Source: a bacterium
GTDB lineage: Bacteria > Zhuqueibacterota > Zhuqueibacteria > Residuimicrobiales > Krinioviventaceae
Direction of reading: 5' to 3'
Length of the DNA stretch: 64,000 nt
Assembly (NCBI GenBank): GCA_963674595.2
Contig: CAXXFV010000005.1
Coordinates: forward strand, 10,500 to 74,499
Shown: in pieces, positions 15,931 through 39,197 of the stretch
Layout: each line of letters begins with the position of its first letter
Position numbering within the stretch: the first letter of the stretch is position 1
Position numbers and translations under genes: made by a program
Notes under the pieces: generated by a model
What the model was told of the DNA's origin: nothing
The model's input: only the letters and a program-made list of their open reading frames with translations
Database searches by the model: none

Positions 15931-16056
15931 TGAAAAGCACACAGGTTTTCTACTATATTATCAAATTATTAAGCCCGTACACCACTCTTTAAAACACCAA
16001 AGCCCCACATATTTGCAGGGCTTGATAAATGATTGAATTCCATTATTATTGGTTTT
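15931..16056. repeat. Dispersed ~125-bp repeat R3 (copy 1 of 3) with AAGCCC-N12-GGGCTT inverted repeat
   Basis: Aligns by eye with 28761-28884 and 29595-29722. Confidence 0.65.
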
Positions 16057-16356
16057 TAGCTCTCTATAATCACCACCTTCTTTTATATAATTTAACATTT
16101 ATATCCATCATCTCACATCAATCCAGACATGGGCAATACTACTTCAGTTTTCTATCACTTCAACAACCTTTAAATCCATCCAACATCTTCAAGAACCTCT
16201 TTTAGAAATATATGATGCAATTTTGGATGAATTCGAGAATTAAACAGTTTATGCTTTATTTGTTTTAGATCCTCGTTTCTATTTCCATTTATTATCCCTG
16301 CTCCCGCCGATCTAATAGTTGATTCTATCAGTCAGGAATACATTATAATCCTTGTA

Positions 16357-16920
16357 CTAGATATTAATACTTAATTGTTCCGAATAAACTTTTATTAATT
16401 CATTCCAGGGCTGTTTTTGAGATAATAAAGGCCATTTATGACTCGTGGTTGCCAATTGATGCAATGCCTCAAATGTCTTGTTCCCAACATAACGATTAGC
16501 AAATTGAAACACATATCTTCCAATTAAGGCACTATCGATCTCCGGCATATTTCTTAAATTCAACTGAAGAGTCTGTAAAGACATTTGACGCTTCATATAA
16601 TCCTGGTGCCCGGACCGGTTCCATTGTGACGGGCTAATGAGAATATAAGAATCAAATATCTCTTTACAGATCGTCAATTGAGTTTGAGTGACATGGGCAT
16701 TCACATCCCATGTCATGTTACTGTTTATGCTCTGCTCATGATCCTCAATCACTGCAAACGCAATATTGTGATGTTGTTTAGTTTTGTATAATCTTTCACT
16801 ATAATCAAGATGTCTAAAATATTTTATTGTTCCGGTGTTTATATATTTACCATACTGGTCCCAGATGGTCAAACCGGTAAAACTACCTGGGGAAATACTC
16901 ACAAATGTCATGTTATTCAT
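16357..16920 (-). CDS. RuvC/RNase H-fold protein, probably catalytically altered
   Basis: FVSISPGSFTGLTIW (Ser in place of the DPG Asp), AVIED, ISPSQW, EIDSALIG; paralogue of the adjacent gene; likely start 16920. Confidence 0.6.
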   Translation of the reverse strand: MNNMTFVSISPGSFTGLTIWDQYGKYINTGTIKYFRHLDYSERLYKTKQHHNIAFAVIEDHEQSINSNMTWDVNAHVTQTQLTICKEIFDSYILISPSQWNRSGHQDYMKRQMSLQTLQLNLRNMPEIDSALIGRYVFQFANRYVGNKTFEALHQLATTSHKWPLLSQKQPWNELIKVYSEQLSINI

Positions 16921-16936
16921 AATCACACCTTTTATT

Positions 16937-17521
16937 TTAATTTTCAAGCCATGGTTTTAATTGATTGACAGTCGGATATGGCAGTTGTTCAAAAGCCATC
17001 TGTTTCATGGCAATAAATCCAGCCCCATTCGTGTCGAAATCAATAATTTCAAAAGTTAGTTTCCCCATAAGAGCTGAATCAGTTTGATGAGAATTGGGCA
17101 GTTGTTCTCCAAATAGATCCCTGGCCCATTGTCGTTTAAATTTATCTTTACATTTATTCCGGTTCCACTGCGTGTGAAAGATTAGGATGTGATCCGGGAA
17201 CACTTCTTTACATACCTGGATTTGAATTGAGACTTTATATGAGTTTTTTCTTTTCATACCGATAAACGGTTTGTAATCTTCCAGAAGGATAAATTCAAGC
17301 TTGTACTCTTTCTCAATGTGTTCCAGTAACAGTCTGTATTGTTGTGTGTCTTTAAAGGGTAGATTCTTTGAACAAACCTTTGATCCCATACTGTTAAACA
17401 CACTGATCCCACCGGGATTGCCCGGATCAACCGCACCCCAAAATCTGTTTAAATTCGACATGGTTTCTGTCTTTTGAGATTCCACCAAAGCTGTAATCAT
17501 ACTATTCTGTAATCGAATCAT
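16937..17521 (-). CDS. RuvC-like Holliday junction resolvase (phage type)
   Basis: GAVDPGNPGGISV, ILLED, TQW, QTDSALMG: the RuvC D...E...D pattern. Confidence 0.7.
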   Translation of the reverse strand: MIRLQNSMITALVESQKTETMSNLNRFWGAVDPGNPGGISVFNSMGSKVCSKNLPFKDTQQYRLLLEHIEKEYKLEFILLEDYKPFIGMKRKNSYKVSIQIQVCKEVFPDHILIFHTQWNRNKCKDKFKRQWARDLFGEQLPNSHQTDSALMGKLTFEIIDFDTNGAGFIAMKQMAFEQLPYPTVNQLKPWLEN

Positions 17522-17535
17522 GTCAAACTCCTTTT

Positions 17536-18075
17536 CTATTTCTCATTGATACTAGATAATTCAATTTTTTTCCATTTTAATTCTCTGGACATCGTATCTG
17601 TCGTAAACTGTTTTTTCTCTTCTACCTTGCGGTTATTTTTATAAGCATCCAAAAAAAGTTTGCGTGTGGCGGCAATGGCAGTGGTGGATCGTATTTCAGG
17701 TCCCCACTGTACAAGAAGAGGATATAAATGCCCTTCACCGTTTTTCTGCATTCGTTTTTCTATCACCATCATCATACAGGAACCAATGGATGGATCATAA
17801 AAATGGTCAAGATACATTTTAATCCGATTCCATGCCACTTGAGCTTGCTGTTGAAGAGGATCCTGTCCCCGTAAATCTGCCGGTGACGGGAAAAAAGCAT
17901 TTTTATTTCTAAAATATAAAACAGCATTCTTTTCAATTTCCTTAAAACTCAGGTCCTGTAATATCTTGAAATAAAAATCTATCTTCTCTACGGTCAACGG
18001 TTGTTTATTATTCACAGCAACAGTTTCCATTTGCCACATGAGTTTTGAAAAACATTCTCTATCTTTTTCAGTCAT
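17536..18075 (-). CDS. Phage replication-region protein (DUF6475/loader-inhibitor-like)
   Basis: MTxxDRxxF...IDFYFKILQDL...FFPSPADLR...AQVAW...RKLFLDAY pattern seen in genes following phage replication initiators. Confidence 0.5.
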   Translation of the reverse strand: MTEKDRECFSKLMWQMETVAVNNKQPLTVEKIDFYFKILQDLSFKEIEKNAVLYFRNKNAFFPSPADLRGQDPLQQQAQVAWNRIKMYLDHFYDPSIGSCMMMVIEKRMQKNGEGHLYPLLVQWGPEIRSTTAIAATRKLFLDAYKNNRKVEEKKQFTTDTMSRELKWKKIELSSINEK

Positions 18076-18239
18076 ATATCAACCTCTATGATAAGACATT
18101 AAGATGTTACCTTTTTATTAATTTCATAATCAATAGATGTTACATCTGTTGATTGATTATTTTTTATCAAATTTCTCAGGCCGTCGTATTTAAACGACGA
18201 CCCGGAGTATTAAAAGAACATGGCAACAAACCAAAATTC

Positions 18240-18650
18240 CTAAAACGGCAGGTCATCTGCCGGTTCATCAGGGAAATTTGTTTGTTGTTCCTGTTCATAG
18301 GTTTGACTGTATTGTAAAATCTGCACCTGTTCTGCTTGTATTTCTGTCATATATTGCTTGTTGCCATCTTTATCATCCCAGGAACGAGTGGCAAGCTTGC
18401 CTTCGATATAAACCAGATCACCTTTTTTAGCATATTGAGAAATCATTTCAGCGGTTTTTCGCCATATAACGACACGATGCCATTCTGTTTTTTGGACAAT
18501 TTCTCCGTCCTGGGATTTATAGGATGTATTGGTTGCCATGTTTAACGTCACAACAGCCACCTCGGAATTGGTGTATTTGATTTCCGGGTCTTTACCTAAT
18601 CGACCGATTAACATGACTTTGTTTAATGTTGCTTTACTATTGTATGCCAT
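18240..18650 (-). CDS. ssb: Single-stranded DNA-binding protein
   Basis: LNKVMLIGRLGKDPE, TEWHRVV, KGDLVYIEGKL, acidic DDLPF tail. Confidence 0.96.
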   Translation of the reverse strand: MAYNSKATLNKVMLIGRLGKDPEIKYTNSEVAVVTLNMATNTSYKSQDGEIVQKTEWHRVVIWRKTAEMISQYAKKGDLVYIEGKLATRSWDDKDGNKQYMTEIQAEQVQILQYSQTYEQEQQTNFPDEPADDLPF

Positions 18651-18655
18651 TTTTA

Positions 18656-19372
18656 TTACCTCACTCGTATATCATCTTTTGAATAAACTCTAATGCCTTG
18701 AAATTTATCAACAGCATCTTTTTTTAATTTTTGTACTTGAGCGTTAATTTTTGAACGGGACGGTTCGCATAGTTCCGGGTGATGTTGACACACCAGGTCC
18801 GGATCTGTTATGTCATATTTCCAGTAGGTCACAACACTTGAAGTCGCCTGAATGGATTGAACCGATGATTTTGCGACAATCTCCTGACTTGCTACATGTT
18901 TGACAGCTTTATCCAGTGCCTGCTTTGTTTCTTCATCACCCGCAGCTTGTTTGGCTTGTTCAAGTTCTTTGATTTGTTGTGCTTTCTCTGCTTTTAAACG
19001 TTGTTCTTCTTTGTGTTTTTTCCCCTTTTGATATGCCAAAAGTTTTGATCGCAGCATGCCATTCAGCTTTTCAACTTCATTTGTTAAATTTTTAAATGGC
19101 TGCTCTTTTGTTTTTATCTGTTCCTTTAATTCTTTTACCGATTCTTTTTTAGCACTATCAAGGTACTTTATAAATTTTGATATTTTTCCGGTATAATCGG
19201 TCACCTCAAAAATAGTAGCATCATCAACCGTTATATCGACAACTGTTAACCGAATGTCTGTATATGTTGAGATGATCATTACGTCATCTATTTCTGCCAA
19301 CTCCGGTAACGCTTCTGCTTCAATGACATCAGGTACACCATTCAAAATGCTGTCGAAAAAATCATTTTCCAT
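18656..19372 (-). CDS. Phage coiled-coil protein of recombination modules (Gp157/Gam-like)
   Basis: Long coiled coil and C-terminal WKYDITDPDLV...P...KI...GIRVY motif; lies between the annealase and ssb. Confidence 0.5.
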   Translation of the reverse strand: MENDFFDSILNGVPDVIEAEALPELAEIDDVMIISTYTDIRLTVVDITVDDATIFEVTDYTGKISKFIKYLDSAKKESVKELKEQIKTKEQPFKNLTNEVEKLNGMLRSKLLAYQKGKKHKEEQRLKAEKAQQIKELEQAKQAAGDEETKQALDKAVKHVASQEIVAKSSVQSIQATSSVVTYWKYDITDPDLVCQHHPELCEPSRSKINAQVQKLKKDAVDKFQGIRVYSKDDIRVR

Positions 19373-20246
19373 TATCCGTCTCCTTTTTCTCTTGTTGAAC
19401 CTGCTGCATTCTCTCTTTTAACTTTTGCAGGAAAAAGTTTTGTTTTTTCTTGTCTATTTTTTGGGCTGTTGTCACACCCATATCCTCAAGCATTTTTAAA
19501 TAAATGGTGTGCGTTCCTGTCTGTTTAAAAAGCCACTCTTTGGCATTTTTACATTTGTCCTCAAAGGACGGTTCAGTTTTTGATTTTTGATCAAGTTGAT
19601 TGTTATTAACAGAATCACCGTGCGTGTTATTGTTTGAAATCTCATAGGGCCAGCCATATTGAGGATAGTCTTTGCGCCGCCACAACAAAACTTTATTATT
19701 ATCTCTTTTATCTGTATACCATTCACTAATAGCAAAGTCTTGTTTCCATTCCATGATAAAATTGGGAGACCACAGTTCTGTAGCAATTCCCAAATCTTTA
19801 CAACATCGGGTCAGACAATCTGTTTTGGCTCCTTCAACAGCACTGGCATAGGTCATGGACTTGTTGTTCGGATGGTATTTCTGTTCTCCGACAGCTTCAG
19901 ATATAAACTGTCCAAGAACAAATAAAACCCCGTGATAACAGACCAGATTGATGTTTTTGTCATAAAAAATATTTCGACTATACAAGGCCCATCCACCAGC
20001 ATGAAAAGCTTCAATTAATCTTTTACGATAAAAAACACCCGGTAAATAAATAATGCCATCGGGCCGGATGGCAACATCGTTTTTATCTATTTCAGCAGAC
20101 AACTTTCGTTGAACCTGATCTGTAACAGGATTCTCAGCAATGTTATTATACAGATCGATTTCACAATTTTCCTGAACTGTCACTTCTTTATTTTGGTCTG
20201 ACTTTATTGCCAAAGCAACTTGAGATTGATTTCCATTTCCATTCAT
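19362..20246 (-). CDS. Mgm101/Rad52-superfamily single-strand annealing protein
   Basis: IRPDGIIYLPGVFYRKRLIEAFHAGGWAL...GEQKY...AVEGAKTDCLTRCCKDLGIATELWSPNFI matches the Mgm101 core (IKPDG-IYLP...FG-GGW...EG-KS--LMRCCKDLG---ELW-P-FI). Confidence 0.85.
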   Translation of the reverse strand: MNGNGNQSQVALAIKSDQNKEVTVQENCEIDLYNNIAENPVTDQVQRKLSAEIDKNDVAIRPDGIIYLPGVFYRKRLIEAFHAGGWALYSRNIFYDKNINLVCYHGVLFVLGQFISEAVGEQKYHPNNKSMTYASAVEGAKTDCLTRCCKDLGIATELWSPNFIMEWKQDFAISEWYTDKRDNNKVLLWRRKDYPQYGWPYEISNNNTHGDSVNNNQLDQKSKTEPSFEDKCKNAKEWLFKQTGTHTIYLKMLEDMGVTTAQKIDKKKQNFFLQKLKERMQQVQQEKKETDNGK

Positions 20247-20254
20247 GATTCACC

Positions 20255-20521
20255 TCAAAAATTTAATTTATCCTGATCTGTAAATCCTATTTGCATATTC
20301 TCAATGATTTGATTCATAAGGATTTCTTTGACATCCATATTGGAATAGGCTATTTTGACAGCACCTTGTAATGCCACCATTCCAATAGAATTGTTCCCAC
20401 CAAGTATGATTTGTGCAAGAGACACAATATCATGATCAATGGTAATGTCGATGTTTAAATTCTCTATCAGCATTTTTGCTGCTGAGACTTGTCTCTCTTT
20501 TGAAGGATATTTTTTTCCCAT
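20255..20521 (-). CDS. Hypothetical phage protein
   Basis: 88-aa ORF with GGAG RBS, co-oriented in the module. Confidence 0.6.
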   Translation of the reverse strand: MGKKYPSKERQVSAAKMLIENLNIDITIDHDIVSLAQIILGGNNSIGMVALQGAVKIAYSNMDVKEILMNQIIENMQIGFTDQDKLNF

Positions 20522-20688
20522 TTCTAATCTCCAGTAATAATTGTTAAAAATATTATGGCCATGTTTTACACGTAGCCTGACATCATGCCGCTACTATGTT
20601 GCACCGATACTTTTTCCGCTTTAGGTTCTCTCCGGTGCTGAACACTAAACAAGAATTTTTATGTAATTTATCATAGCTATATTAAAAT

Positions 20689-20952
20689 TTACATCCATGT
20701 CTCAAAGAGTCCTGATGCCGGGTCATACTCTATATCAAACATCCTCTTACAATAGCTGATGGGACATTTTATAGAGTCTGTTGCTCCGGTTTGAACCTGT
20801 TCTACGATTTCAGAATCCAAATATCCATCCACAACAGTACCACAATGCGGACAAATAATATGAAAAGCTTTTGTGTCGATTTTTTCCTTTTCAGGAACAT
20901 CAAAAGGAGCCACAAATAACGGATTCGTGTCCATGTCATCATGATACATCAT
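20689..20952 (-). CDS. Small zinc-ribbon protein
   Basis: CPHC...CPISYC; likely start 20952 with GGAG RBS. Confidence 0.55.
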   Translation of the reverse strand: MMYHDDMDTNPLFVAPFDVPEKEKIDTKAFHIICPHCGTVVDGYLDSEIVEQVQTGATDSIKCPISYCKRMFDIEYDPASGLFETWM

Positions 20953-21301
20953 CAGTATCTCCGTCTCTTTGACGTTTACTGGTATGATCATACAAGTACA
21001 AATCTTCACAACCCATGATGTTTCTGGCCATACGAAGCCATCTTAAACGATTAGCTTGTCTGATTAAATTGGATATAATCCGAAAGTCTCCGGCATCTAT
21101 CGGTGTCCGGCCCCCTTTACATAAATTGTTTAATCGCCCGATTGTCATTTTCGCTTCCTGAGCAAACCATTCCCTGGTCAGTTGTTTATTCTGTGAGATA
21201 CAATCCTTGATAGCATTATCGATTTCTGATGCAATAAACCGAAACAGTTTCTCTTCTGCTGTTGAGAGTGTATCTTGTTTTTCAAATTGTCTTTCTTTCA
21301 T
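20939..21301 (-). CDS. Putative HTH regulator (Cro/CII-like position)
   Basis: LTREWFAQEAKMTIGRLNNLCKG HTH-like segment; first gene of the leftward operon divergent from the repressor. Confidence 0.5.
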   Translation of the reverse strand: MKERQFEKQDTLSTAEEKLFRFIASEIDNAIKDCISQNKQLTREWFAQEAKMTIGRLNNLCKGGRTPIDAGDFRIISNLIRQANRLRWLRMARNIMGCEDLYLYDHTSKRQRDGDTDDVS

Positions 21302-22018
21302 TTTCTACTCGCTTTTTTACGTGGTTTTATAATTGATGATTAATTTTTGCACATTCCTGCAAAAATTAATGGCACTGCCCATTGAAAAAACCATTCACCC
21401 ATATTATATTGAATTGTCAACTTTTAAAAAATGAGGTCAATTATGAAAGCAAAGAAAAGAGAACCTGTTGAATATACACTGAATTTAAGCTGTGAAATCA
21501 ACTTTGATTTATTGAGGATTATCGAAGCGGCATGTATTTTTCAGAAAGCTTTTATTTCTTTATTGTTAAAAGACAAGAATTTCACTATCTTCAAATACAA
21601 AGGCTGCTCAGGTGCTTATGTTGATATTCAACAGGCTCTTTGCAGTTCTTTTACGTCACCCTCTGGTTTGCAACGTTTGGCGACTGAACAGACCAGGGGG
21701 TTTTATTTTAATTGACCTGAAAATTCAACTTAACAAGGATCACGAATTTTCAGACGAGAGCAATTTTCCATTATAGTTAAATGCTCTATTGTTTGAATGT
21801 CGTTCTGACAGATCAATTGACTAAATGACCTCTTATTTATTATTGATTTTAAATGTTTTTTTCTTTAAAATAAAAATCAGCATAACCATATAAAAATAAA
21901 TGTGTACGGAGTCTGTTCCCGGTCCGCAGAGGGTCACCAAATTATAGGATTAAAAATTAATATATCCTATCGTACACATTGCACCATAGTTTAATTAATG
22001 TTATTATAAGTAGTTAAC

Positions 22019-22426
22019 ATGACAATGGCAAGCAAAGATTATAATAATCACATTTTTTTTGAAAATCTTTTACATCTATGCAAAGAGAAAAATTGGTCCC
22101 CAAACAGATTGGCAAAAGAAACACATGTGTCAGCTTCTTTTATTTCAAAAATTAAAAATATGGGTGCACATTCATCAAATACCCTTTTATTAAATTTGTA
22201 CAATATTTTTTCAGACGAAACCAAAATATTAAATCCGTTTTGGCTTTTTTATAATGAAGGTCCGCAATATCTCTACTTGAAAAAAGAAAATATTTTAAAA
22301 TCAGATCCTCTTCAAAACGAACCGGATCAAATTGTTCAGACTGTGAAAAAGATCCGAACCCTGCCTAAAGAAAAACAAGATTCCTTATTACAAATTATTA
22401 ATGGATTTATTACATTTAATAAATAA
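22019..22426 (+). CDS. XRE-family (CI-like) repressor without peptidase domain
   Basis: WSPNRLAKETHVSASFISKI HTH, LNPFWLFYNEG; divergent from the phage early genes. Confidence 0.75.
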   Translation: MTMASKDYNNHIFFENLLHLCKEKNWSPNRLAKETHVSASFISKIKNMGAHSSNTLLLNLYNIFSDETKILNPFWLFYNEGPQYLYLKKENILKSDPLQNEPDQIVQTVKKIRTLPKEKQDSLLQIINGFITFNK

Positions 22427-22852
22427 TTTGAAATATCCAACCAGTAAAAGAATTTTATAAAAATTTAATTATCTTATTGATTCCGTAAAAATCATGCCGG
22501 GGATAAACTGATAAATTCCTAATCGAATCAAAATACTAAATACATGTTGTATTACACATTCATCCGGATTAGGTTCACTATGGCGAATTCCAAAATTTAA
22601 TCAAATCAAATATTATAATTAGAAAATTACAAGAAATCAGGGGCATAAAGAAAGTGAAGTTTCAATCCACCTGTAACTACATTTGCTTACCCAATAAATA
22701 AATCGCTACGGTAAATCATTCTGGAGATTTGGGTCTTGTTTTTTATGGACCTGTGGGAGTTAAATTAAGGCTAGATAGAAAATTTCAGGTTAGAGTAATA
22801 AAATCTCAAGATTGCTCCAATAAAAATATAACAAGGCAATATTCGGATACAT

Positions 22853-23094
22853 ATTCCAGAGCAAAATTGCCACCAATTCCAGTGAAAACTGCCACCATGA
22901 TAAATTAAAATTGTCAAAATGTTTGGATTGTTCAGTACTAAACTTTCAGCCGAAATCACTGGCAGGCTTTATAAGAACACACAGTAAGATTCAGGCTGAT
23001 AGTAAAAATGACCTGAAATGGGGAATTGAGTTAAAAGAAGAACAATACAAGTCAAAGGTTTGAAGCCTTTAATTTAAAATTAATTTGTTAAACA
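22853..23094. repeat. Dispersed repeat R2 (80-bp core CTGCCACCATGATAAATTAAAATTGTC...TGGCAGG) within a ~240-bp duplication of 31623-31866
   Basis: Near-identical to 31623-31866. The core also occurs at ~24807, ~29041, ~31659 and ~31998. Confidence 0.85.
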
Positions 23095-24729: not shown

Positions 24730-24806
24730 TTGTGCATAATTATTATAAAATTGCAATGAATGGAGATTCCATGAGAAAAATTTTCTGTAAACATTCCAGC
24801 TCAAAA

Positions 24807-24885
24807 CTGACACTATGATAAATTAAAATTGTCAAAATGTTTGGATTGCCCAGTACTAAACTTTCAGCCAAAATCAGTGGCAAGT
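24807..24885. repeat. Repeat R2 core copy
   Basis: ATGATAAATTAAAATTGTCAAAATGTTTGGATTGCCCAGTACTAAACTTTCAGCC, as in the other copies. Confidence 0.85.
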
Positions 24886-25549
24886 TTTATCAGAATATGC
24901 ACATTGAACAAAATGTCCCTGAAATGCAACATTTTTTCGCACCATTTCATGATCAGTTATTATATGACAATATCAGCTTAAATTATTTACATGATTTAAC
25001 ATATTAAATAGTCTAATGTTATCATTATGTGAAAGTCGTCCTGCCACTGAATATGGATTTTTTTAAATTTGTATTACAGGCATAAATATTGCAAAAACTA
25101 TAAAAAAAGGGGATAAATAATTACGTGGAAAGTATTGACTGCTTTTCTTTATATAACTGATTTGCCGGAGTTGACTCTAACTTGTTAAATCAGTTACAAG
25201 CAATTATCATTTATTCGAGTTCATACCTATCACTGCCGGAACAAGGAGCGGATTGCTTTATTTCTATCCACTATCAGGATTGTTCTTTAATGGCGTGAAA
25301 AGTTGCTTTGTTTATATCGATTATTGAATGGAAACTAAAAAGAAACGGCTTCTGAAACATAAAAAGCATAACGTCTCTGAGAAGAAAATTCCTTCATTCA
25401 TTATTTTGAAATTAATTTTTAGGTTCTAGTTTAATTAGAATGATTTCTTGTTTAAAATCATAAATAGAGCCTCTGAAAAATTGAAAGATATTTAAATAAT
25501 TATGATATCTTTATCGACTAATTTTTTTGAATTAATTTAGAATGTTAAT

Positions 25550-28403: not shown

Positions 28404-28760
28404 TATGATTAATTACATTATTTAAATATTATGATTTAAAGATGACCATCATAAGATAAGAACAGTACCATAAACAAAATATGTCAATTTTAAAACGATA
28501 TTTGATTTTTTTACCTACACTTGACGTTAAATTTTTAAAAAATCCGATATTTTAATAAAAAGCAAAAGAACTCTGCACCATCGGCTCTTGCATTAAGGAT
28601 TTAGCTAGGTAAGCAATGAATACTTAAAACAGCCTTACCCTTGTTAAATGTGAAAAACGTAAAATTTTAAAAGCGTTTAGGAACATCAAATACTCTCCTT
28701 GTATCCCGTCAATGTATATCACCAGAACATTTCGGACACTTTTATTTTAAGAAAAAGATT

Positions 28761-28884
28761 TGCAAAGTACACAGATTTTCTATTATCACATCAAATTAAA
28801 GTCCCTACATCTTTTATATATACAAAAGCCCCACAGTATCGTAGGGCTTGATATATAATTGAATTCTCTTTATTTGATTTCAAC
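28761..28884. repeat. Repeat R3 copy 2
   Basis: AAAAGCCCCACAGTATCGTAGGGCTTG...TTGAATT. Confidence 0.65.
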
Positions 28885-28903
28885 AAAATCATTTTCACAA
28901 TAT

Positions 28904-29000
28904 TAAACTTGCTATATTTTAAAGGACATAAAGACAAGCACTTTGTATATTATAAACCAAAGGAGGTGTCCACATGACAAACAGAAGACGACGCTATACT
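28904..29000 (+). mobile_element. IS3-family left-end remnant with orfA start (MTNRRRRYT)
   Basis: TAAACTTGCTATATTTT...GGAGGTGTCCACATGACAAACAGAAGACGACGCTATACT; R-rich OrfA-like start, truncated after ~12 codons. Confidence 0.65.
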
Positions 29001-29271
29001 ACATATTCCTGACCAAAACTGCCAACAATCCGTTTGAATACTGCCACCATGATAAATTAAAATTGTCAAAATGTTTGGATTGTCCAGTACTAAACTTTCA
29101 GTTTGAATAAGTGGCAGGTTTTATCAAAATATAAATGTACTTTAGTATTTGATTATAAATAGGTTATCTCTCACAATTCAAAACTATAGCCACATAAGTA
29201 GCATAACTCCACATTTTCCTTAAAGCTTCAATTATTTGACAGACAGTATAATTCTGTTTACCCATTATGGA

Positions 29272-29575
29272 CCAGTGTCAAAAATGTAAAAAATGTAAAA
29301 ATACCACCCTTTAATCGTTATTCCTTGAAGTGAAAAAGGTGAATCCAGGATCTCCATTTCCGATTATGACCTCTGCTCTCTCCCGATAACAGCGATAAAA
29401 GCCTACCAGTGTATAAAGTGTGTAAAATTAGGAAACTTTCGGTTTTTGATTTATAAAACTTTGATCCTTACATCCATTTCCGATTATTATCTCTGTTCCC
29501 TCGCGATGACAGTTATAAAAGCCTACCAGTGTCAAAAATGTAAAAAATACCATTCTTTAATCGTTATTCCTTGAA
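29272..29575. repeat. Short sister array (B unit, A unit, partial B unit) of the ~121-134-bp repeat
   Basis: ACCAGTGT anchors at ~29272, 29405 and 29525; same core as the main array. Confidence 0.9.
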
Positions 29576-29594
29576 TCTATAATTTCTTTCCCAC

Positions 29595-29722
29595 TTGAAG
29601 AATACATGGATTTTTTATTACAATACAAATTATGTAAGCCCCAACAGTCGCTATATTAAACAAAAAGCCCAACAGTATTGTAGGGCTTAGTAAACTATTG
29701 AATTTCATTATTCGGTTTCAAC
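29595..29722. repeat. Repeat R3 copy 3
   Basis: AAAAGCCCAACAGTATTGTAGGGCTTAG...TTGAATTTCATTATT. Confidence 0.65.
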
Positions 29723-29821
29723 TGTCGTATTCGGTTCTACCACACCTATTACTTAACCATGGGAAAATTCCTAAGGCGAGTAAAAATTAGAAAAAATGGA
29801 ATACTGTTCGATCCCGAAAAA

Positions 29822-30982
29822 TTAGTAAATCTGTACACTGAATTTACAGTTGAAACCTGGTTTATTTATTATCTTCATTTCACTGTTTAACTGTTTAATT
29901 AGTGATTTGATTATTAACATACCAAATGAATTGCTTGATTCAAAATCAAATCCTTCAGGAAGCCCAACCCCATTATCTTCGTAATGTATGGACAATCGTT
30001 TTAAAGATGTTGATGATATCTTAATTTTGATATAAGGTCGCTCAATCGAATGAAAAGCATATTTGATCGAGTTTGTCGTTAACTCTGCGATAATTAAACC
30101 AATAGGAAGCATCTGTTCTTGATTGACGATAATATCATTAGCATCAACAATCAAATTAATATCACTTTTAGTAAGATTGGAATCAATATGCCCACACAAT
30201 TCAGTTATATAATCTTTAATTGAAATGCTCGATGTATCTTTGGACATATATAGTTTTTCGTGAATAAGGGAGATTGCAGTGATGCGATGTGTAATGTCAC
30301 CTAAAATACTCAAAAATTCACTTTCATTGTTTATTTGTTTTGATTGAAGACGAATAGAGCTTATTAATACATTAAAGTGGTTTTTAATTCTATGATGTAT
30401 CTCACGTACTATTAAATCAGTATTAGTAAGTTTATCCTTTAATTCTTCATAAAGCGTTAGCTGATTTAAATCTGACTCTATAATGCTTTTAAATTCTTGC
30501 AAAATATCGATATATAATTTTGAATATTCATTTTCTTTGTTATCCAGAACACAAAAAGTGCCAAATATTTCACCGTCATTCCATGTTATTGGAAATCCCA
30601 GATAGGAAATCATATTTAATTTTATATCAGGATTACTTTTCCAATATTCTGATTCCAGTGCATTTTTTACAAGTAAGTCTCTTCGTTTACCAACAACTGT
30701 TTCACAATACAAGCCCAGCCCCAGCACCTCAGAATCATTTTTATGATATGGGTTCCCTTTTGTATGACTGCTTGCATAAACTTCAATTCGGTCTTTTTTT
30801 AATTTCATAATGAGTGCTGACGGCACATGTAATAGTTCTGCGATTAAATCAAGTATCTTTTGCCATTTTACTTGTACATCGTCTGGTATCTCTGGTTTGC
30901 CCAAAGATGTGATAGGTACAATTATTCTGGCAGCTTCTTTCTCAACTTTAACTTTAGAATATTGATTTTTATTTACAGACAT
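29822..30982 (-). CDS. GAF-domain sensor histidine kinase (HisKA_2 type)
   Basis: GAF (GLYCETV, SYLGFPI, FGTFCVLD), EIHHRIKN, ELTTNSIKYAF, DNGVG. Confidence 0.92.
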   Translation of the reverse strand: MSVNKNQYSKVKVEKEAARIIVPITSLGKPEIPDDVQVKWQKILDLIAELLHVPSALIMKLKKDRIEVYASSHTKGNPYHKNDSEVLGLGLYCETVVGKRRDLLVKNALESEYWKSNPDIKLNMISYLGFPITWNDGEIFGTFCVLDNKENEYSKLYIDILQEFKSIIESDLNQLTLYEELKDKLTNTDLIVREIHHRIKNHFNVLISSIRLQSKQINNESEFLSILGDITHRITAISLIHEKLYMSKDTSSISIKDYITELCGHIDSNLTKSDINLIVDANDIIVNQEQMLPIGLIIAELTTNSIKYAFHSIERPYIKIKISSTSLKRLSIHYEDNGVGLPEGFDFESSNSFGMLIIKSLIKQLNSEMKIINKPGFNCKFSVQIY

Positions 30983-31522
30983 GTTGTTTGTACCTCACTA
31001 AAGTAATATTAAATATTAATATTTAAATACATATAAGATGGCGGTTCCGGATATGCAAGGTCACGAAGGTCCCTAAATGCCTGGTATTATCTGTTTCTTA
31101 TCCAAATACGTGTTACTTGAAAATGAACACAGTCGAATTTGTACTTTTCAATTTAGTTTTTATTTGTTTTGCGGTTGGTTATCTATAGGCAATTATTTTG
31201 AAAAAATGATTTTTTTGTGTAACATGTTACAAATTTAGAAATGAATTATAACTCTATCTCACGGGGTAAAATTTAACGCTACATAAAAGGTTTCATTGAC
31301 CGTAAGGAGGGATTAAAACCGATAGATCACTTTCTACCAAGTTAGAAGAAATACGTTTGTTGTGAACAGTACAAAAAATTTAAGTCAAAAGCAATCTTTT
31401 CTTCATGTTTGTCTGTAACTAAAGTATTGAAGAAGAAAATTAGATAAGGATACTATGAACTCATATGATCGACCAAATAATGCTAAAATACAATAATTTG
31501 GCTAAGATGCCAAGGTCGGGCC

Positions 31523-32075
31523 TAAACTTGCCATATTTTAGTGGACACAAAGTTAAGCACTTTTTATATTATAAACCAAAGGAAGTGTCCACATGAAAAC
31601 AAAAGACGACACTATACTACGTATTCCTGACCAAAATTGCCACCCATTCCAGTGAATACTACCTCCATGATAAATTAAAATTGTCTAAAGGTTTGGATTG
31701 TCCAGTGGTAAACTTTCAGCCGAAATCAGTGGCAGGCATTATCGTGGAATACATAGTCGGATTCAGGTTGATAGTAAAAATGGTCTGAAATGGGAAATTG
31801 AGTTAAAAGAAGAACAATACAAGTCAAGGATTTGAAACCCTTAATTTAAAATTAATTTGTTAAACATAAACTTGCTATATTTTAGTGGACACAAAGTTAA
31901 GCTCTTTTTATATTATAAACCAAAGGAAGTGTCCACATGAAAACAAAAGACGACACTATACTGCGTATTCCTGACCAAAATTGCCACCCATTAATACTAC
32001 CACCATGGTAAACTAAAATTGTCAAAATGTTTGGATTGTTCAGTGGTAAACTTTCAACTGGAATCAATGACAGGT
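31523..32075 (+). repeat. Two tandem copies of the [IS3 left end + R2] composite repeat
   Basis: TAAACTTGC.ATATTTTAGTGGACACAAAGTTAAG...GTGTCCACATGAAAACAAAAGACGAC at 31523 and 31867, each followed by an R2 core. Confidence 0.85.
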
Positions 32076-32226
32076 TATATCAGAATATAAACGTACTTTA
32101 GTATTTGATTATAAATAGGTTATCGCTAACCATCCAAAACCATGTCCACATAGGTAGCATGACTCCACGTTTTCCTTCAAGTTTCAATTATTTGACAGGA
32201 AGTATAATTCTGTTTACCCATTATAG

Positions 32227-35200
32227 ACCAGTGTCAAAAATGTAAAAAATGAAATAATGTAAAAATACCATCCTTTAATTGTTATTCATTGAAGTGAAAA
32301 AGGTGAATCCAGGATCTCCATTTCCTATTATTATCTCTGCTCTCTCCCGATAACAGCCATAAAAGCCTACCAGTGTATAATATGTAAAATAATGGACAAC
32401 CTTATCTGTTTTTAGATATAAAACTTTGATCCTTATTTCCATTTCCGATTATTATTTCTGTTCCCTCTCGATGACAGCCATAAAAGCCTACCAGTGTCAA
32501 AAATGTAAAAAAACCATCATTTAATCATTATTCCTTGAAGTGCAAAAGGTGAACCCGGATTTTCCATTTCAGATCATTACCTGTGTTCTCTCCCGATAAC
32601 AGCCATAAAAGCCTACCAGTGTGTAAAATGTGTAAAATTAGAAAACTTTCTGTTTTTAGATATATAAAATTTTGATCCATACATCCATTTCCGATTATTA
32701 TCTCTGCTCTCTCGTGACGACAGTTATAAAAGCCTACCAGTGTGTAAAATGTGTAAAATGTTTAAAATTAGAAAATTTTCTGTTTTTAGATTTATAAAAC
32801 TTAAATCTATACATCAATTTCCGATTATTATCTCTGCTCTCTCCCGATAACAACCATAAAAGCTTACCAGTGTGTAATAATTGTAATAATAGACGATTTT
32901 CTGTTTTTAAATATATAAAACTTTGATCCTTATTTACATTTCCGATTATTATCTCTGCTCTCTCCCGATGATAGCCATAAAAGCCTACCAGTGTGTAATA
33001 TGTAAAATAATGGACAACCTTATCTGTTTTTAGATACAAAATTTTGATCCTTACTTTCATTTCCGATAATAATCTCTGTTCCCTCCAGATGCCAGCCATA
33101 AAAGCTTACCAGTGTATAATATGTAAAATAATAGACAACCTTATCTGTTTATAGATATAAAACTTTGATCCTTATTTCCATTTCCGATTACTATATCTGC
33201 TCTCTCGCGATAACAGTTATAAAAGCCTACCAGTGTGTAAAGTGTGTAAAATGTAAAAATAGACAACTTTCTGTTTTTAGATATATAAACTTTGATCCTT
33301 ATTTCCATTTCCGATTATCATCTCTGTTCTCTCCCGATGACAGCGATAAACGCCTACCAGTGTGTAAAATGTGTAAAATGTTTAAAATTATAAAATTTTG
33401 ATCCATACTTTCATTTCCGATTATTATCTCTGTTCCCTCGCGATGACATCCATAAAAACCTACCAGTGTCAAAAATGTCAAAAATGTAAAAGTACCATCC
33501 TTTAATCGTTATTTCTTGAAGTGCAATAGGTGAACCCAGGATCGCCATTTCCGATTGCTATCTCTGTTTCTTCCCGATGACAGTTATAAAAGCCTACCAG
33601 TGTGTAATAATTGTAATAATAGACGACTTTCTGTTTTTAAATATATAATACTTTGATCCTTATTTCCATTTCCGATTACTATCTCTGTTCCCTCACGACG
33701 ACAGACATAAGAGCCTACCAGTGTATAATATGTAAAATAATAGAAAACTTTCTGTTTTTAGATATATAAAACTTTAATCCTTATTTCCATTTCCGATTAC
33801 TATCTCTGATCCCTCGCGATGACGGAAATTAACGCCTACCAGTGTGTAAAATGTGTAAAATGTATAAAATTAGAAAACTTTCTGTTTTTAGATTTATAAA
33901 ACTTTGATCCTTACTTTCATTTACGATTGTTATCTCTGTTCTCTCGCGATGACAGCAATAAAAGCCTACCAGTGTATAATATGTGAAATAATAAACGACT
34001 TTTTGTTTTTAGATGTATAAAACTTAAATCTATAAATCCATTTCCGATTATTATCTCTGTTCCCTCGCGATAACAGCCTACCAGTGTGTAAAATGTGTAA
34101 AATGTATAAAATTATAAAATTTTCTGTTTTTAGATTTATAAAACTTAAATCCTTACATCCATTCCCGATTATTATCTATGTTCCTTCCAGATGACAGGAA
34201 TAAACGCCTACCAGTGTATAAAATGTGAAAAATGTAAAAATACCATTCTTTAATCGTTATTCCTTGAATTGCAAAAGGTGAATCCAGATTGTCCATTTTC
34301 GATTATTATCTCTGCTCTCTCCCGATGACAGCTATAAAAGCCTACCAGTGTATAATATGTAAAATAATGGACAACCTTATCTGTTTTTAGATATAAAATT
34401 TTGATCCTTATTTACATTTCCGATTATTATCTCTGCTCTCTCGACGACAGCGATAAAAGCCTACCAGTGTGTAAAATGTATAAAATTAGAAAACTTTCTG
34501 TTTTTAGATATATTAAACTTTGATCCTTACACCCATTTCCGATTATGATCTCTGCTCCTTCGCGATGACAGCCACAAAAGCTTACCAGTGTGTAAAGTGT
34601 GTAAAATGTCAAAAATTAGACAACTTTCTGTTTATAGATATAAAATTTTGATCCTTATTTACATTTCCGATTATTATCTCTGCTCTCTCGACGACAGCGA
34701 TAAAAGCCTACCAGTGTGTAAAATGTATAAAATTAGAAAACTTTCTGTTTTTAGATATATTAAACTTTGATCCTTACACCCATTTCCGATTATGATCTCT
34801 GCTCCTTCGCGATGACAGCCACAAAAGCTTACCAGTGTGTAAAGTGTGTAAAATGTCAAAAATTAGACAACTTTCTGTTTATAGATATAAAACTTTGATC
34901 CTTATTTCTATATCCGATTACTATCTCTGCTCTCTCCCGGTGACAGCTATAAAAGCCTACCAGTGTATAAAGTGTGTAAAATTAGAAAACTTTCGGTTTT
35001 TGATTTATAAAACATTGATCCTTATTTCCATTTCCGATTATTATCACTGTTCCTTCCCGATGTCAGCGATAAACGCTTACCAGTGTAAAAAATGTGAAAA
35101 ATGTGTAAAATTAGACAACTTTCTGTTTTTAAATATATAAAATTTTGATCCATAAATCCCTTTCTGATTATTATCTCTGTTCTCACCCGATGACAGTTAT

Positions 35201-36235
35201 AAAAGCCTACCAGTGTGTAATAATTGTAATAATAGACGACTTTCTGTTTTTAAATATTTAAAACTTTGATCCTTATTTCCATTTCCGATTATTATCTCTG
35301 TTCCCTCGCGATCACAGCCATAAAAGCCTACCAGTGTATAATAATTATAATAATAGACGATTTTCTGTTTTTAAATATATAAAACTTTGATCCTTATTTC
35401 CATTTCCGATTATTATCTCTGTCTCTCCCGATAACAACCATAAAAGCCTACCAGTGTATAAAATGTGAAAAATGTAAAAATACCATTCTTTAATCGTTAT
35501 TCCTTGAATTGCAAAAGGTGATTCCAGGATCGCCATTTCCGATTATTACCTCTGCTCCTTCGCTATGACAGTTATAAAAGCCTACCAGTGTCAAAAATGT
35601 AAAAAATGTAAAAGTACCATCCTTTAATTGCTATTCCTTGAAGTGAAAAAAGTGAACCCAGGATCGCCATTTCAGATCATTATCTCTGTTCCCTCGCGAT
35701 GACAGTTATAAAAGCCTACCAGTGTCAAAAATGTAAAAAATGTAAAAATACCATTCTTTAATCGTTATTCCTTGAATTGCAAAAGGTGAATCCAAGATTT
35801 CCATTTCCGATTATTATCTCTGCTCTCTCGCGACGACAGCGATAAAAGCCTACCAGTGTATAAAGTGTGTAAAATTAGAAAACTTTCTGTTTTTAGATAT
35901 ATAAAACATTAATCCTTACATCCATTTCCGATTATCATCTCTGTTCCCTCGCGATCACAGCCATAAAAGCCTACCAGTGTATAATAATTATAATAATAGA
36001 CGATTTTCTGTTTTTAAATATATAAAACTTTGATCCTAATTTCCATTTCCGATTACTATCTCTGTTCCCTCCAGATGACAGCTATAAAAGCCTACCAGTG
36101 TGTAATAATTGTAATAATAGACAACTTTCTGTTTTTAGATTTATAAAACTTTGATCCTTACATCCATTTCTGATTATAATCTCTGTTCCCTTGCGATGAC
36201 AGCCAAGAAGCCTACCAGTGTATAAAGTGTATAAT
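32227..36235. repeat. Large non-coding tandem array of ~32 degenerate units (106-142 bp; mostly ~121, ~130 or ~134 bp)
   Basis: 33 ACCAGTGT anchors counted from 32227 to 36214. Constant core CCATTTCCGATTATTATCTCTGYTCYCTCSCGATGACAG-ATAAAAGCCTACCAGTGT, two variable module types, and an exact 247-bp internal duplication. Confidence 0.97.
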
Positions 36236-36237
36236 AT

Positions 36238-36272
36238 AAAAAAAGGCCGGAAAAATTTTCCCGGCCTTTTTC
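36238..36272. terminator. Bidirectional intrinsic terminator
   Basis: AAAAAAGGCCGG-loop-CCGGCCTTTTTT, between the array end and the stop of the 36294 gene. Confidence 0.85.
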
Positions 36273-36293
36273 TATAATATATAATATGTAATC

Positions 36294-38615
36294 TTATTTA
36301 ACATAAAATAATTTTTGTAACGATCTGTATCCCGGGGTTTTCATTTCTATAAAGTACACGCCTGTCGACAACAATTGGTTGTGTGAATTTAAACTGTTCC
36401 ATATTAACCGGTGCTGACCGGCCTGTTGTTCACCATTATAAAGAGTCTGGACTTTTTGTCCCAATGTGTTATAAACAGTCAAGGTGACATGTTCACTCTT
36501 TGGCAATGAGTAGCTGATAACAGTGGAAGAATTGAATGGATTTGGATAGGGCATTGACAATTTATACTGATCCGGAGTTTGCATAGTAACGGTAACCGTC
36601 TCCGAATAGGTGCTGCTGCCGTCCAGGTCTGTCATCTTTAAACGATAACTGTTTGTTTGGTCCGGGGAATTATCTGTAAAAGAATAGTTCTGTTCCTGTG
36701 TTGATGTGCCGGCTGCTTTTTCAAATCCGATTTGCTGAAATTTATCTCCTACTTTTTTTTCAATATAAAAACCAAGGGTATTGGACTCTGTTGCTGTTTT
36801 CCAGTTCAGAATAACGGAATTTGATTCGGTGGTTTGCGCGCTAAAAGAGACCAGCTCTACAGGCACTACCGATCCGGTTGATAACATGGAGGTATTGCCA
36901 TTAGCATCTGTAACGGTTGCTGTGGCATGACTTTGTGATATGGTGCCGTTCCATGTAAAGTTACCTGTTGCACTGGATGTTGTTTTTCCCAAATAGGTTT
37001 GTGCCTGGGTCCCATTATCGGAAAACAACTCGACTGTGCTGTTGGCGATTGTCGTACCGGTAATTGTTGTCTTGTTGGCACCGGTGATTTGCGGGGCAGG
37101 AACTAATGCATTGAGTCCGGTTTGGATAAGGATGGCAAATTCACCATTATTATAAATGGAATTTTGAGAAATGGTATTGTTTATGGTATCTTCTCCTTTT
37201 ATCCAGATGCCATAGTAACCATGTCCGGTTATAACATTATTTGTACCGATAAAATTTTGACTTGCCCCTGAAAAGAGCATAATCCCCGTATCATATCCTG
37301 AGATCAGGGTTTGGGTGGCGTTTGTGCCGAGATAATTATTTTTAATGGTTGTATTAAAATTACCAGCACCAGTCATTTTTATAGCCGCGTAGGACAAGTC
37401 CGGTTCCATATTCTGACCGACGATGACATTCCCGGGACCGATTATGTTACCATCCGGCAGGCCGCCTTTAGCTTCAGGCATAATCACCAGTCCGTTACCC
37501 GTGTTGGGGACAACGGTTGAACCATCTGCACTGCTGCCGATATAATTGTTTTCCATCACTGTATTGTGTGCACCCCTGATTTCAACGGCATTGGAGGTGT
37601 TTCCTGAAAGAACATTGTTTTTAATTTTTGTGCCGTCTGCAATATCTACGATCCAGATGGCACCTTCACCGTTCGGCAATGCGGTTTGTCCGTCGGCACC
37701 GACACCGATATAATTGTATTGTATAAGATTATTATCTGTGCCTTCATCTTTGGCATCTTTGATAATAATAGCCTGGCGCCCGCAGGCACACATGACATTC
37801 CCGGAGTCCGGAGTGGAACCGCCGACCTGGTTTGAGTAACTTCCGTTTCGGATATACATACCTGCCCAGGGACCGCCATAGGTTACATCTACGCCCCAAC
37901 CAATAGGCAATTCTGATATACCGGATTTGTTTACACCGATATAGTTACCGATGATTTTATTATCATGTACATTTAAAACCATTTCTATCGCTTCGTAATA
38001 AAACCCACCCATAATATTTCTATCCTCACCGACGCCGCCGATGACATTATGATGGGCGCCTTCCCGGATATTAACACCGTTACTTTTCTGTACAACATAA
38101 GACTGATTGCCGTCCGGATCAGTACCGATAAGGCATCCACGGATGATATTATGGTGTGCGTTTTCACCTTCAATCCAGAAATGATGGGCACGAAATTTAC
38201 CGATACATATTCCCTCTATGGTGTTATAGGCGGAATAAATACTGATTGCCGGCAATTCGACCGGAGAACGGTTGCTGAGAATAACAATTTCCAGACCGTC
38301 TGCGTTGGTATTGCCGATATTTCCGGCCTGACTGTGACCGTCGATATGTGTGTTATCATCCGTAATATCCGGCAGGGCTGTTGTACATTCAATTTCAAAT
38401 GTTCCGCTGCTTGCTGAATAATTAGGATCGCTTGTTGGTATGGCAAACTCAATCGTATCTGCACCGGGATTGGCGGCTGCCTGGGTCATGGCCCATGTTA
38501 ATGATCCGTTTCCTGTCTCATTGGTATTTGTGACCGTGTAGGTATTTGCCGACAGGATTGCCGGGAGTGCCAGCATTATTAAAATTGATTTTATGTTTTT
38601 AATAACAAAAGACAT
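36294..38615 (-). CDS. Secreted parallel beta-helix repeat protein with C-terminal T9SS-type/FlgD-Ig sorting domain
   Basis: Signal peptide, VTNTNETGNGSL, repeated N-x-I-x-GNYIG-x-x-x-x-G units, PVELVSFSA, YPNPFNSST...GVYF; GGAGG RBS before ATG 38615. Confidence 0.85.
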   Translation of the reverse strand: MSFVIKNIKSILIMLALPAILSANTYTVTNTNETGNGSLTWAMTQAAANPGADTIEFAIPTSDPNYSASSGTFEIECTTALPDITDDNTHIDGHSQAGNIGNTNADGLEIVILSNRSPVELPAISIYSAYNTIEGICIGKFRAHHFWIEGENAHHNIIRGCLIGTDPDGNQSYVVQKSNGVNIREGAHHNVIGGVGEDRNIMGGFYYEAIEMVLNVHDNKIIGNYIGVNKSGISELPIGWGVDVTYGGPWAGMYIRNGSYSNQVGGSTPDSGNVMCACGRQAIIIKDAKDEGTDNNLIQYNYIGVGADGQTALPNGEGAIWIVDIADGTKIKNNVLSGNTSNAVEIRGAHNTVMENNYIGSSADGSTVVPNTGNGLVIMPEAKGGLPDGNIIGPGNVIVGQNMEPDLSYAAIKMTGAGNFNTTIKNNYLGTNATQTLISGYDTGIMLFSGASQNFIGTNNVITGHGYYGIWIKGEDTINNTISQNSIYNNGEFAILIQTGLNALVPAPQITGANKTTITGTTIANSTVELFSDNGTQAQTYLGKTTSSATGNFTWNGTISQSHATATVTDANGNTSMLSTGSVVPVELVSFSAQTTESNSVILNWKTATESNTLGFYIEKKVGDKFQQIGFEKAAGTSTQEQNYSFTDNSPDQTNSYRLKMTDLDGSSTYSETVTVTMQTPDQYKLSMPYPNPFNSSTVISYSLPKSEHVTLTVYNTLGQKVQTLYNGEQQAGQHRLIWNSLNSHNQLLSTGVYFIEMKTPGYRSLQKLFYVK

Positions 38616-38673
38616 GTTCCCTCCAAACAAAGAGTGATGAGTTAAATGATTAATAAATTTAATAAAACGCATT

Positions 38674-38949
38674 TCAATAGATTTCATCATGATGACCTAC
38701 GTTTACGAGAATGATTTCTTTTTCAGTAATATAAAATTCTAATACAATTCGATATGAAATGTTTATTGATACGGAATATAGTTTGTTAAATTTACCCTTT
38801 AATTGATGCAACCTAAGGGATGGATGGTCGGGATTCATTTCTAAAATTTTTAATGTTTTTTCATATTGTGAAATTATTTCCGGATGCTTTTTTAAAAATT
38901 TGGATGCTCTTTTGATATAACTGTACGTATAAACAAGTTGATATGTCAT
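38674..38949 (-). CDS. Type II toxin, RelE/YafQ superfamily
   Basis: 91 aa, NPDHPSLRLHQLKG, SVSINISYRI, VGHHDEIY. Confidence 0.85.
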   Translation of the reverse strand: MTYQLVYTYSYIKRASKFLKKHPEIISQYEKTLKILEMNPDHPSLRLHQLKGKFNKLYSVSINISYRIVLEFYITEKEIILVNVGHHDEIY

Positions 38950-39197
38950 TTTGTTACTCGTTGAACATGTTCTTCAACAGATTCTGTAACAAAATTTCCG
39001 GCTTTATAATCGGCCTCTGTTTCGCGTAAAGCAGCATCAAGTTCACATTCACGGAGATAATTATAGTATTTCATATCCATAACGACAAATTTTTCTTTAC
39101 CACGAACAGTAATTACCAATTCGCTATTGTCTTCAAGATTGCTCTCTATAGCAGATATACCTTTTGTTTTTAATTGATTGGCTGTTATCGTATTCAT
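38946..39197 (-). CDS. Type II antitoxin, Phd/YefM family
   Basis: ITANQLK...VITVRGKEKFVVM; 4-bp overlap with the toxin gene. Confidence 0.85.
   Translation of the reverse strand: MNTITANQLKTKGISAIESNLEDNSELVITVRGKEKFVVMDMKYYNYLRECELDAALRETEADYKAGNFVTESVEEHVQRVTK

Follow-up and report, generated by a model that had tools for sequence, protein, structure and literature searches.

A tandem array of probable satellite character, built from a prophage terS region, in a bacterium of the Krinioviventaceae

We analysed a 64,000-nucleotide stretch of bacterial DNA (Zhuqueibacterota; Zhuqueibacteria; Residuimicrobiales; Krinioviventaceae), namely positions 10,500 to 74,499 of contig CAXXFV010000005.1 in assembly GCA_963674595.2. 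This stretch is called the window below, and coordinates refer to it unless another contig is named. It contains a 4-kb non-coding array of 32 tandem units, which very probably arose as a tandem duplication within a prophage, from the region in front of a gene for a putative small terminase (TerS). With moderate confidence we regard the array as a satellite without a dedicated function, formed by tandem duplication and unequal crossing-over while the prophage decayed. Most of the unit drifts, and what is kept in every copy is the phage cis-element before terS (ACACTGGTA, minus strand). For a factor of these resident phages the array could be a passive sink at most, and it is not evidence of a new repeat system. 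A second small array, the origin upstream of a prophage terS-like gene and the debris of an IS3-family insertion sequence go beyond the preliminary description of the locus.

Units of the array and their dynamics

Splitting the sequence at ACCAGTGT gave 33 boundaries and therefore 32 head-to-tail units, from 32227 to 36221, after which a 14-bp partial tail of the 9-mer leads to a hairpin (Table 1). The commonest unit lengths are 121 bp (12 units), 134 bp (five), 130 bp (four) and 120 bp (three), and lengths of 106, 112, 119, 125, 126, 127, 128 and 142 bp occur once each. Tandem Repeats Finder recovered 25.6-29.1 copies at period 121 (score 2411) and 15.8 copies at period 242 (score 3052). The two approaches together bear out the roughly 32 units and a partial one proposed in the preliminary description. 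The core pattern matched 18 times in the window and not once in 100 shuffles.

The preliminary description recognised only two kinds of variable module between the cores. The B-type set stands exactly as it was listed there, with seven units starting at 32227, 32490, 33462, 34210, 35450, 35584 and 35718. The A-type is not a single kind: it includes at least three subtypes as well as deletion variants. A-type units have the core and the motif in common with B-type units, but carry a different 45-bp module. The constant part of about 60 bp itself contains many variable positions. Each unit opens with two to four copies of a 9-bp micro-repeat resembling GTAAAATGT, the source of much of the length variation; these repeats differ among units (GTAAAATGT, GTAATAATT and CAAAAATGT), and the constant part is ACCAGTGT only. 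The sense of the array that is of biological relevance is the minus strand, as it is for the terS fragment that the array precedes.

The identity of units to their nearest neighbours ranges from 76 to 100%, mostly 85-94%, with one identical pair. Among A-type units the mean identity is 77.7% and the minimum 57.4%, values that are slightly low since one B-type unit (unit 3) was included. An exact repeat of 258 bp at a distance of 247 bp records a duplication of two units that was recent; ten other exact tracts, 46-101 bp long, occur in varied phases, often across a unit boundary. The higher score of period 242 over period 121 and these shared tracts indicate unequal crossing-over and conversion in a satellite. 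The signs of unequal crossing-over expected of a satellite are thus all present (the higher-order period, the recent duplication and mosaic units), and exact shared tracts of 46-258 bp in varied phases substantiate the earlier suggestion that mosaic units were shuffled by recombination.

Source upstream of a prophage terS-like gene

The only other places in the genome where the unit can be recognised lie in two prophages. Contigs C10 and C3 of the same genome each carry a full-length gene (P0001) for a 134-amino-acid (aa) helix-turn-helix (HTH) protein, the two copies being 99% identical. On C10 this gene overlaps the start of a large terminase gene (terL) of the lambda gpA family (PF05876 GpA_ATPase, 3.5e-23; phrog_675, 2.6e-73). 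Genes for YqaJ, RecT, a ParB-like nuclease, an ABC/GNAT protein and a formyltransferase lie upstream of the HTH gene, and those for the portal, major head and tape-measure proteins lie downstream of the terminase. From this position, and from weak profile matches, the 134-aa protein is a putative TerS. The two prophages (C10:~26400-63500, loci L019 and L011, and C3 around 119 kb) are closely related and apparently complete. Each has YqaJ/RecT, the ParB-like nuclease, the ABC/GNAT protein (phrog_11143), the formyltransferase, a gpA-type terminase, a portal, a major head protein and a tape-measure protein of 1642 aa.

Just upstream of the start codon of the prophage HTH gene the plus strand reads AAAAAAAAGCCTACCAGTGT GTAAAATGT GTAAAATGT TTAAAG..., which is the end of one array unit and the start of the next. 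A genome-wide search with a two-unit query returned C10:54520-54588 (E 2.1e-8, 80%) and C3:119356-119425 (E 1.4e-7) as its only matches off the arrays, and the best match of a B-type profile in the genome was C10:54538-54628 (E 0.0019). At its proximal end (29193-29331) the small array is collinear with C10:54443-54588 from the terS codons through the intergenic region, 100 of 134 ungapped columns being identical; the match between array and prophage reaches as far as the final codons of the formyltransferase gene (TTCCGAT...). These four matches identify the B-type unit as a tandem duplicate of the start of terS, the 90-bp intergenic region and the 3' end of the upstream gene.

The head-to-tail units therefore have a single-copy progenitor, as expected of a satellite: it lies upstream of terS on C10 and C3, where it borders directly on the HTH gene, which itself overlaps the gpA-type terL. 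Of the 31 occurrences of the 11-mer CCTACCAGTGT in 6.6 Mb, 29 are in the arrays and the other two upstream of terS (C10 and C3). Neither core scans allowing mismatches nor blastn found dispersed copies; all copies are in the arrays or upstream of terS on C10 and C3. The preliminary description had considered that the core might be a known genome-wide repeat of the repetitive extragenic palindromic (REP) or miniature inverted-repeat transposable element (MITE) kind, and this confinement of the copies speaks against it.

Traces of the putative terS itself adjoin both arrays. On the minus strand a putative terS pseudogene fragment directly follows the main array, and a second one lies in the same position and orientation next to the small array (Table 1). 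The two units and a third of the small array are closest to 35718-35980 (92%), and the small array with its flank aligns to 31867-32539 as one segmental duplication (684 bp, 86.7%). Both arrays have the same leader of about 375 bp, the copy before the small array (28904-29278) being 85.9% identical to that before the main one. A third copy (31523-31736, 90.7%) comprises the first 214 bp only. The terS fragment makes up the final 130 bp of the leader. The leader's middle part is a scrap that recurs at 22852-22977 and 24803-24898, and 22848-23094 matches 31618-31866 at 88%. A 22-bp tandem repeat in two copies (22853-22897) was noticed inside the scrap that is duplicated into the leaders.

We reconstruct the following course of events. 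A segment of about 135-150 bp, comprising on the minus strand the 3' end of the gene before terS, the 90-bp intergenic region and the first terS codons, was duplicated in tandem in a prophage related to those on C10 and C3. The homology, the collinearity and the terS pseudogene at the array end firmly support this origin. Unequal crossing-over and gene conversion would have carried the array to 32 copies, the A unit type would have arisen by replacement of about 55 bp, and slippage would have altered how many 9-bp micro-repeats a unit has. These steps of growth are supported by the way in which tracts are shared, by the higher-order period of 242 bp and by the recent duplication of 247 bp. As the prophage decayed, its terS fragment acquired stops, its late genes were lost, and truncated IS3 ends and scraps were inserted; one segmental duplication gave rise to the second small array. 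The cis-element ACACTGGTA may be a retained recognition site for a phage protein or RNA.

As a satellite, the locus shows in a clear and traceable way how a prophage control region can become a 4-kb non-coding tandem array. Arrays of this kind are uncommon in bacterial genomes, and for most of them no origin is known.

Known systems, competing explanations and the invariant motif

The array lacks the tested defining features of clustered regularly interspaced short palindromic repeats (CRISPR), integrons, ToxI, REP/MITE elements and Rfam families; in its single-copy progenitor and its signs of unequal crossing-over it agrees with a tandem-duplication satellite. It is non-coding and is neither a CRISPR array nor a simple variable-number tandem repeat, as was stated earlier. 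It resembles CRISPR in the alternation of constant and variable parts and in an AT-rich leader on one side. In contrast to CRISPR, its variable modules recur (B in 7 of 32 units, A in a few subtypes) instead of being unique spacers, and its constant part of about 60 bp is variable and has no conserved hairpin. Cas families were absent from the 55 window proteins (Pfam) and from the 27 proteins around the array (PADLOC), which agrees with the earlier observation that no cas gene or dedicated effector is near. Within about 10 kb of the array, Pfam and PADLOC found no cas gene or known defence effector save a RhuM-Fic protein and a YafQ/Phd pair.

Several other kinds were considered and rejected. 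An integron cassette array is not indicated, as Pfam detected no tyrosine recombinase among the window proteins and the units have no significant hairpin. ToxI, the RNA of type III toxin-antitoxin systems, consists of a few units of about 36 nt followed by the toxin gene; the array likewise has tandem non-coding repeats between a promoter-like and a terminator-like sequence, but no gene follows on that strand, and the next gene past the hairpin is the convergent beta-helix protein gene on the minus strand (36294-38690), which is at odds with a ToxIN-like system. A REP/MITE family does not fit units that are not dispersed genome-wide. As for a coding repeat, many minus-strand units read ATG GCT GTC ATC GGG AGA GAG CAG AGA TAA, but the base after AT varies (G, A, C or T), so that the start codon is not kept and a mini open reading frame (ORF) can be discarded. 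A Chi-like hotspot was dismissed, TACCAGTGT occurring 45 times outside the arrays against about 50 expected, as were cassette boundaries at the motif, since exact shared tracts cross the motif and begin at varied phases.

We searched for RNA structure with equally negative results. At gathering thresholds Rfam models matched no unit and found only a riboswitch at 56918-57037, and at E values up to 10 all 17 matches fell on the hairpin region (36132-36384) and none on the units; a tRNA search found none. Eight folds of single units (four units, both strands) were no better than those of shuffled sequences (z from -1.55 to +1.24). RNAalifold on 25 distinct A-type units gave 0 pairs on the plus strand and, on the minus strand, 11 weak pairs (-2.56 kcal/mol) with 0 compensatory changes. 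A structured non-coding RNA (ncRNA) or Rfam family was rejected on these grounds, there being no covariance model match and no conserved fold. A search of sequencing runs listed no RNA run with this sequence. The preliminary description had seen in the array a candidate undescribed system, with a satellite and a processed ncRNA array among the options. The satellite is the option that we favour; the ncRNA array finds no support in Rfam matches, folding, covariation or conservation. The same description had held that a lack of covariation and of conservation in relatives would speak for a satellite, and both were found lacking, which points to that reading.

The array was present in none of 60 relatives, comprising 18 genomes of the same family, 24 more of the order and 18 more of the class. 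The motif pattern had no match in IMG/VR, nor did the core pattern in JGI metagenomes or GTDB genomes, a set from which the window's own genome was possibly left out. A looser motif pattern hit two metagenome sequences (L020 and L021), both chance matches in unrelated sequence.

Bacterial non-coding tandem repeats have been described as satellites by Subirana and Messeguer; the part of their account considered here gives units of 52 nt or 20-21 nt in several families per genome, proposed roles (small RNA, protein binding) that are unproven, and an origin that is not known (PMC8161180). Measured against that part of the account, our array is alike in its head-to-tail non-coding chromosomal units, fairly constant in size, variable in sequence and restricted to a species. 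It differs in its 121-134-bp units, its confinement to one locus and a small paralogue, its 32 copies and its traceable prophage origin.

Copy number and unit order are those of this single assembly, and no public contig spans the array. We therefore considered whether mis-assembly of a shorter repeat could account for its length and order. Contigs of the Logan collection break inside the array, and the 258-bp exact repeat at distance 247 could be assembly stutter. However, the units are diverged enough, with most nearest neighbours at 85-94% identity, for most to be distinguished individually. Logan contigs from two runs of what is probably the source sample left none of the 30 bins of 28300-36700 uncovered, with 130 of 147 and 84 of 98 pieces at least 99% identical, and runs of two other studies had unit pieces in 21 and 27 of the 30 bins. 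In these runs of other studies (X3 and X4) joints skip or go back within the array, the contigs there being short and of a depth of only 2-2.9. We consider such an artefact very improbable: the array is real DNA in more than one sample.

To compare conservation along the unit we built a neighbour-joining tree of 34 full units from both arrays (121 columns), which required 293 parsimony changes, with a mean of 2.42 per column and a variance of 7.43. Several results weigh against a satellite without function. The 9-mer TACCAGTGT had 0 changes in the 34 units and is the only 9-column window without a change (permutation p 0.0002); no unit boundary was missed, so this invariance is not an artefact of splitting. 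ACCAGTGT is intact in all 38 copies, which include the units, two flank copies beside the terS fragments and the two prophages. At 25 junctions the array equals the prophages exactly over 16-39 bp, while neighbouring sequence is only 65-80% identical. Pure drift predicts neither the invariance of the motif nor the exact identity of the junctions. The phage element in the array is either still under selection or refreshed by conversion from the resident prophages, and either alternative implies a continuing relation between the array and the phages on C10 and C3. The two leader copies, with their dead gene, differ by 13%, about as much as units differ from their nearest relatives (6-15%). One old amplification burst followed by drift fits most of the data, but the similar divergence of units and leaders means that the 4 kb have long persisted, and useless DNA is usually deleted from bacterial genomes. 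Pieces of the array also occur in runs of three studies. Two further points concern the proposed origin. The matches behind the TerS assignment are weak (phrog_309, 5e-4; phrog_606, 5e-3; HTH_8, 21.4 bits at a cut-off of 22), and none of the 29 homologues in the protein collection carries an informative name. For the A-type module, derivation from the 5' region of the ParB-like gene is a possibility suggested by eye; the best match (E 0.38) is not significant.

A PDB sequence search with the putative TerS gave only weak Fis-type HTH matches, and no relative was present in the genome contig collection. IMG/VR held one (L013, 52% identity), in which the terS-like gene overlaps a preceding methyltransferase-like ORF and leaves no intergenic region for comparison. 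Across 43 genomes of the order the search returned the own genome and one weak match (E 6e-4).

The persistence of the motif could be explained if the arrays were a chromosomal sink, in which 34 selected copies of the terS-upstream element act as DNA that titrates or misdirects TerS or a late regulator, or as antisense RNA. We hold this general idea only tentatively. If true, it would mean that prophages are tamed or related phages excluded through amplified viral cis-DNA and no protein effector, adding an effector-free mechanism to anti-phage and prophage-taming strategies. With two apparently complete matching prophages and a perfectly kept motif, the genome offers a direct test bed for viral cis-element decoys.

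In the DNA form of the sink, which we think unlikely, the units would bind the predicted TerS, as a cosB- or pac-like site, or a late regulator, and titration or abortive packaging would damp the resident gpA-type prophages or incoming relatives. The invariance of the motif in all units fits such a role, as do the occurrence of CCTACCAGTGT outside the arrays only upstream of terS in two prophages, the exact identity to the prophages over up to 39 bp, the two to four phased 9-bp repeats after the motif and the membership of the large terminase in the lambda gpA family. The small terminases of lambda and SPP1 bind repeated sites beside their own gene, and lambda cosB, with its R sites next to Nu1, and the pac boxes of SPP1 are terminase recognition regions that are single-copy and functional in packaging. 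The source element here is similar in lying directly upstream of a small HTH gene before a gpA-family terminase and in having short phased direct repeats, but it is a candidate site on sequence grounds and has been amplified 32-fold beside a dead terS. The 9-bp repeats, moreover, vary among units, leaving ACCAGTGT as the only constant part, and with 34 redundant copies only weak selection would be expected on any one of them. The invariant motif does not form a palindrome. Tandem protein-binding sites that act by binding or titrating one protein are exemplified by sopC of plasmid F, with 12 tandem 43-bp units bound by SopB, and by the iteron array incA of P1. Those arrays adjoin the gene of the binding protein on an active replicon and their units have an inverted repeat, whereas no such gene is adjacent here. 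We know of no natural precedent for a DNA decoy array of this kind, and a literature search found no description of amplified terminase-region arrays or natural decoys.

The RNA form of the sink appears quite improbable to us. A plus-strand transcript would run from an IS3-derived promoter to the hairpin at 36240-36275 and present 32 copies of a sequence antisense to the terS start codon and the 5' untranslated region before it, blocking its translation or leading to decay of its mRNA. A promoter-like TGGACA-17-TATATT (10/12) in the IS3 left end is directed into the array and is found in two leader copies, TTGATC-18-TATTAT-like pairs in 15 A units might act as extra promoters, and both arrays have the same leader. 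At the array end the hairpin could serve as a terminator on the plus strand, and at 25 junctions that strand is the complement of the phage terS leader, with no mismatch over 16-39 nt. Against this, the promoters are consensus matches in repeated DNA that is AT-rich, the pairing at the start codon is broken by a preceding T-run of different length (4 in the array, 8 in the phage), there is no stable or conserved fold, and a 4-kb untranslated RNA would be prone to Rho termination.

Neighbourhood of the arrays

The features that bear on the arrays are collected in Table 1. The preliminary description had the main array end at a terminator, and this is confirmed in so far as a terminator-like hairpin starts 5 bp past the array end, with the 3' end of the convergent gene on its other side. 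Terminators of several Rfam small-RNA models align at the hairpin on both strands; it was not among the results of a simple terminator scan.

Table 1. Position, strand and basis of the features discussed
Feature	Position	Strand	Description or basis
Prophage early-region remnant	16173..22420	-	Homologous to the C10 prophage; Pfam, protein comparison
Lone sequence resembling the A-type core	16265..16310	+	Where the ParB-like fragment begins; no off-array match of the A profile scores better, E 0.38
Second putative terS pseudogene fragment	29128..29259 (C5:39627-39758)	-	Residues 3-46, 50% identity, 1 stop
Second array	29272..29575	.	B unit, A unit, partial B unit (2.3 units); sequence alignment
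Truncated left end of IS3-family element	31846..31954	+	About 90-110 bp of a 1267-bp element; sequence comparison
Leader before the main array	31860..32234	+	About 375 bp: IS3 left end, then scrap, then terS fragment
Putative terS pseudogene fragment	32084..32215 (C5:42583-42714)	-	Residues 3-46, 43% identity, 3 in-frame stops
Main array	32227..36235	.	32 tandem units (25 A-type, 7 B-type) of 106-142 bp and a short partial tail
Hairpin, bidirectional terminator-like	36240..36275	.	G+C-rich, A-run and T-run on the flanks; sequence, Rfam alignments
Gene for a beta-helix protein with a type IX secretion system (T9SS) tail	36294-38690	-	798 aa, convergent to the array; ORF, Pfam

The early-region remnant shares with the C10 prophage two genes at 78-83% aa identity and regulators at 57-87%. 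Further genes of the remnant encode a helicase loader, SSB, an exonuclease and an Mgm101-type annealase, and it includes a fragment of a ParB-like nuclease (16173-16292); no late genes follow it. Judged by their sequences, the arrays, the terS fragments, the insertion sequence ends and the duplicated scraps seem to be what is left of the wrecked packaging end of that prophage. At the edge of the remnant lies a gene for a RhuM-Fic/Doc fusion (23343-24326, plus strand), whose whole length matches a candidate defence family, PDC-S23 (E 5.6e-141).

Besides the IS3 left end in the leader of the main array, truncated left ends lie at 28903-28999, 31523-31610 and 15480-15557, which makes four truncated copies in the window. 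Five full copies of the 1267-bp element, 98.6-100% identical, are present at C29:3110-4376, on C18 and C8, and twice on C3. The element looks active, and an 8-bp inverted repeat in its left end (GTGGACAC ... GTGTCCAC) brackets the promoter-like region.

Palindromic elements of the form AAGCCC-ACAGTAT-GTAGGGCTT occur in intergenic DNA at 28820-28850, 29640-29700 and 15930-16047 and match one another at 74-76%; a small REP-like family and terminators are both possible readings. A YafQ/RelE-like toxin and a Phd/YefM antitoxin are encoded at 38674-39197 (minus strand), directly upstream of the beta-helix protein gene. Farther along the window, the riboswitch at 56918-57037 (plus strand) is of the cyclic di-GMP-I (c-di-GMP-I) class (62.2 bits, E 9.1e-10); the ORF downstream of it (57271-59862, 863 aa) has no match in Pfam.

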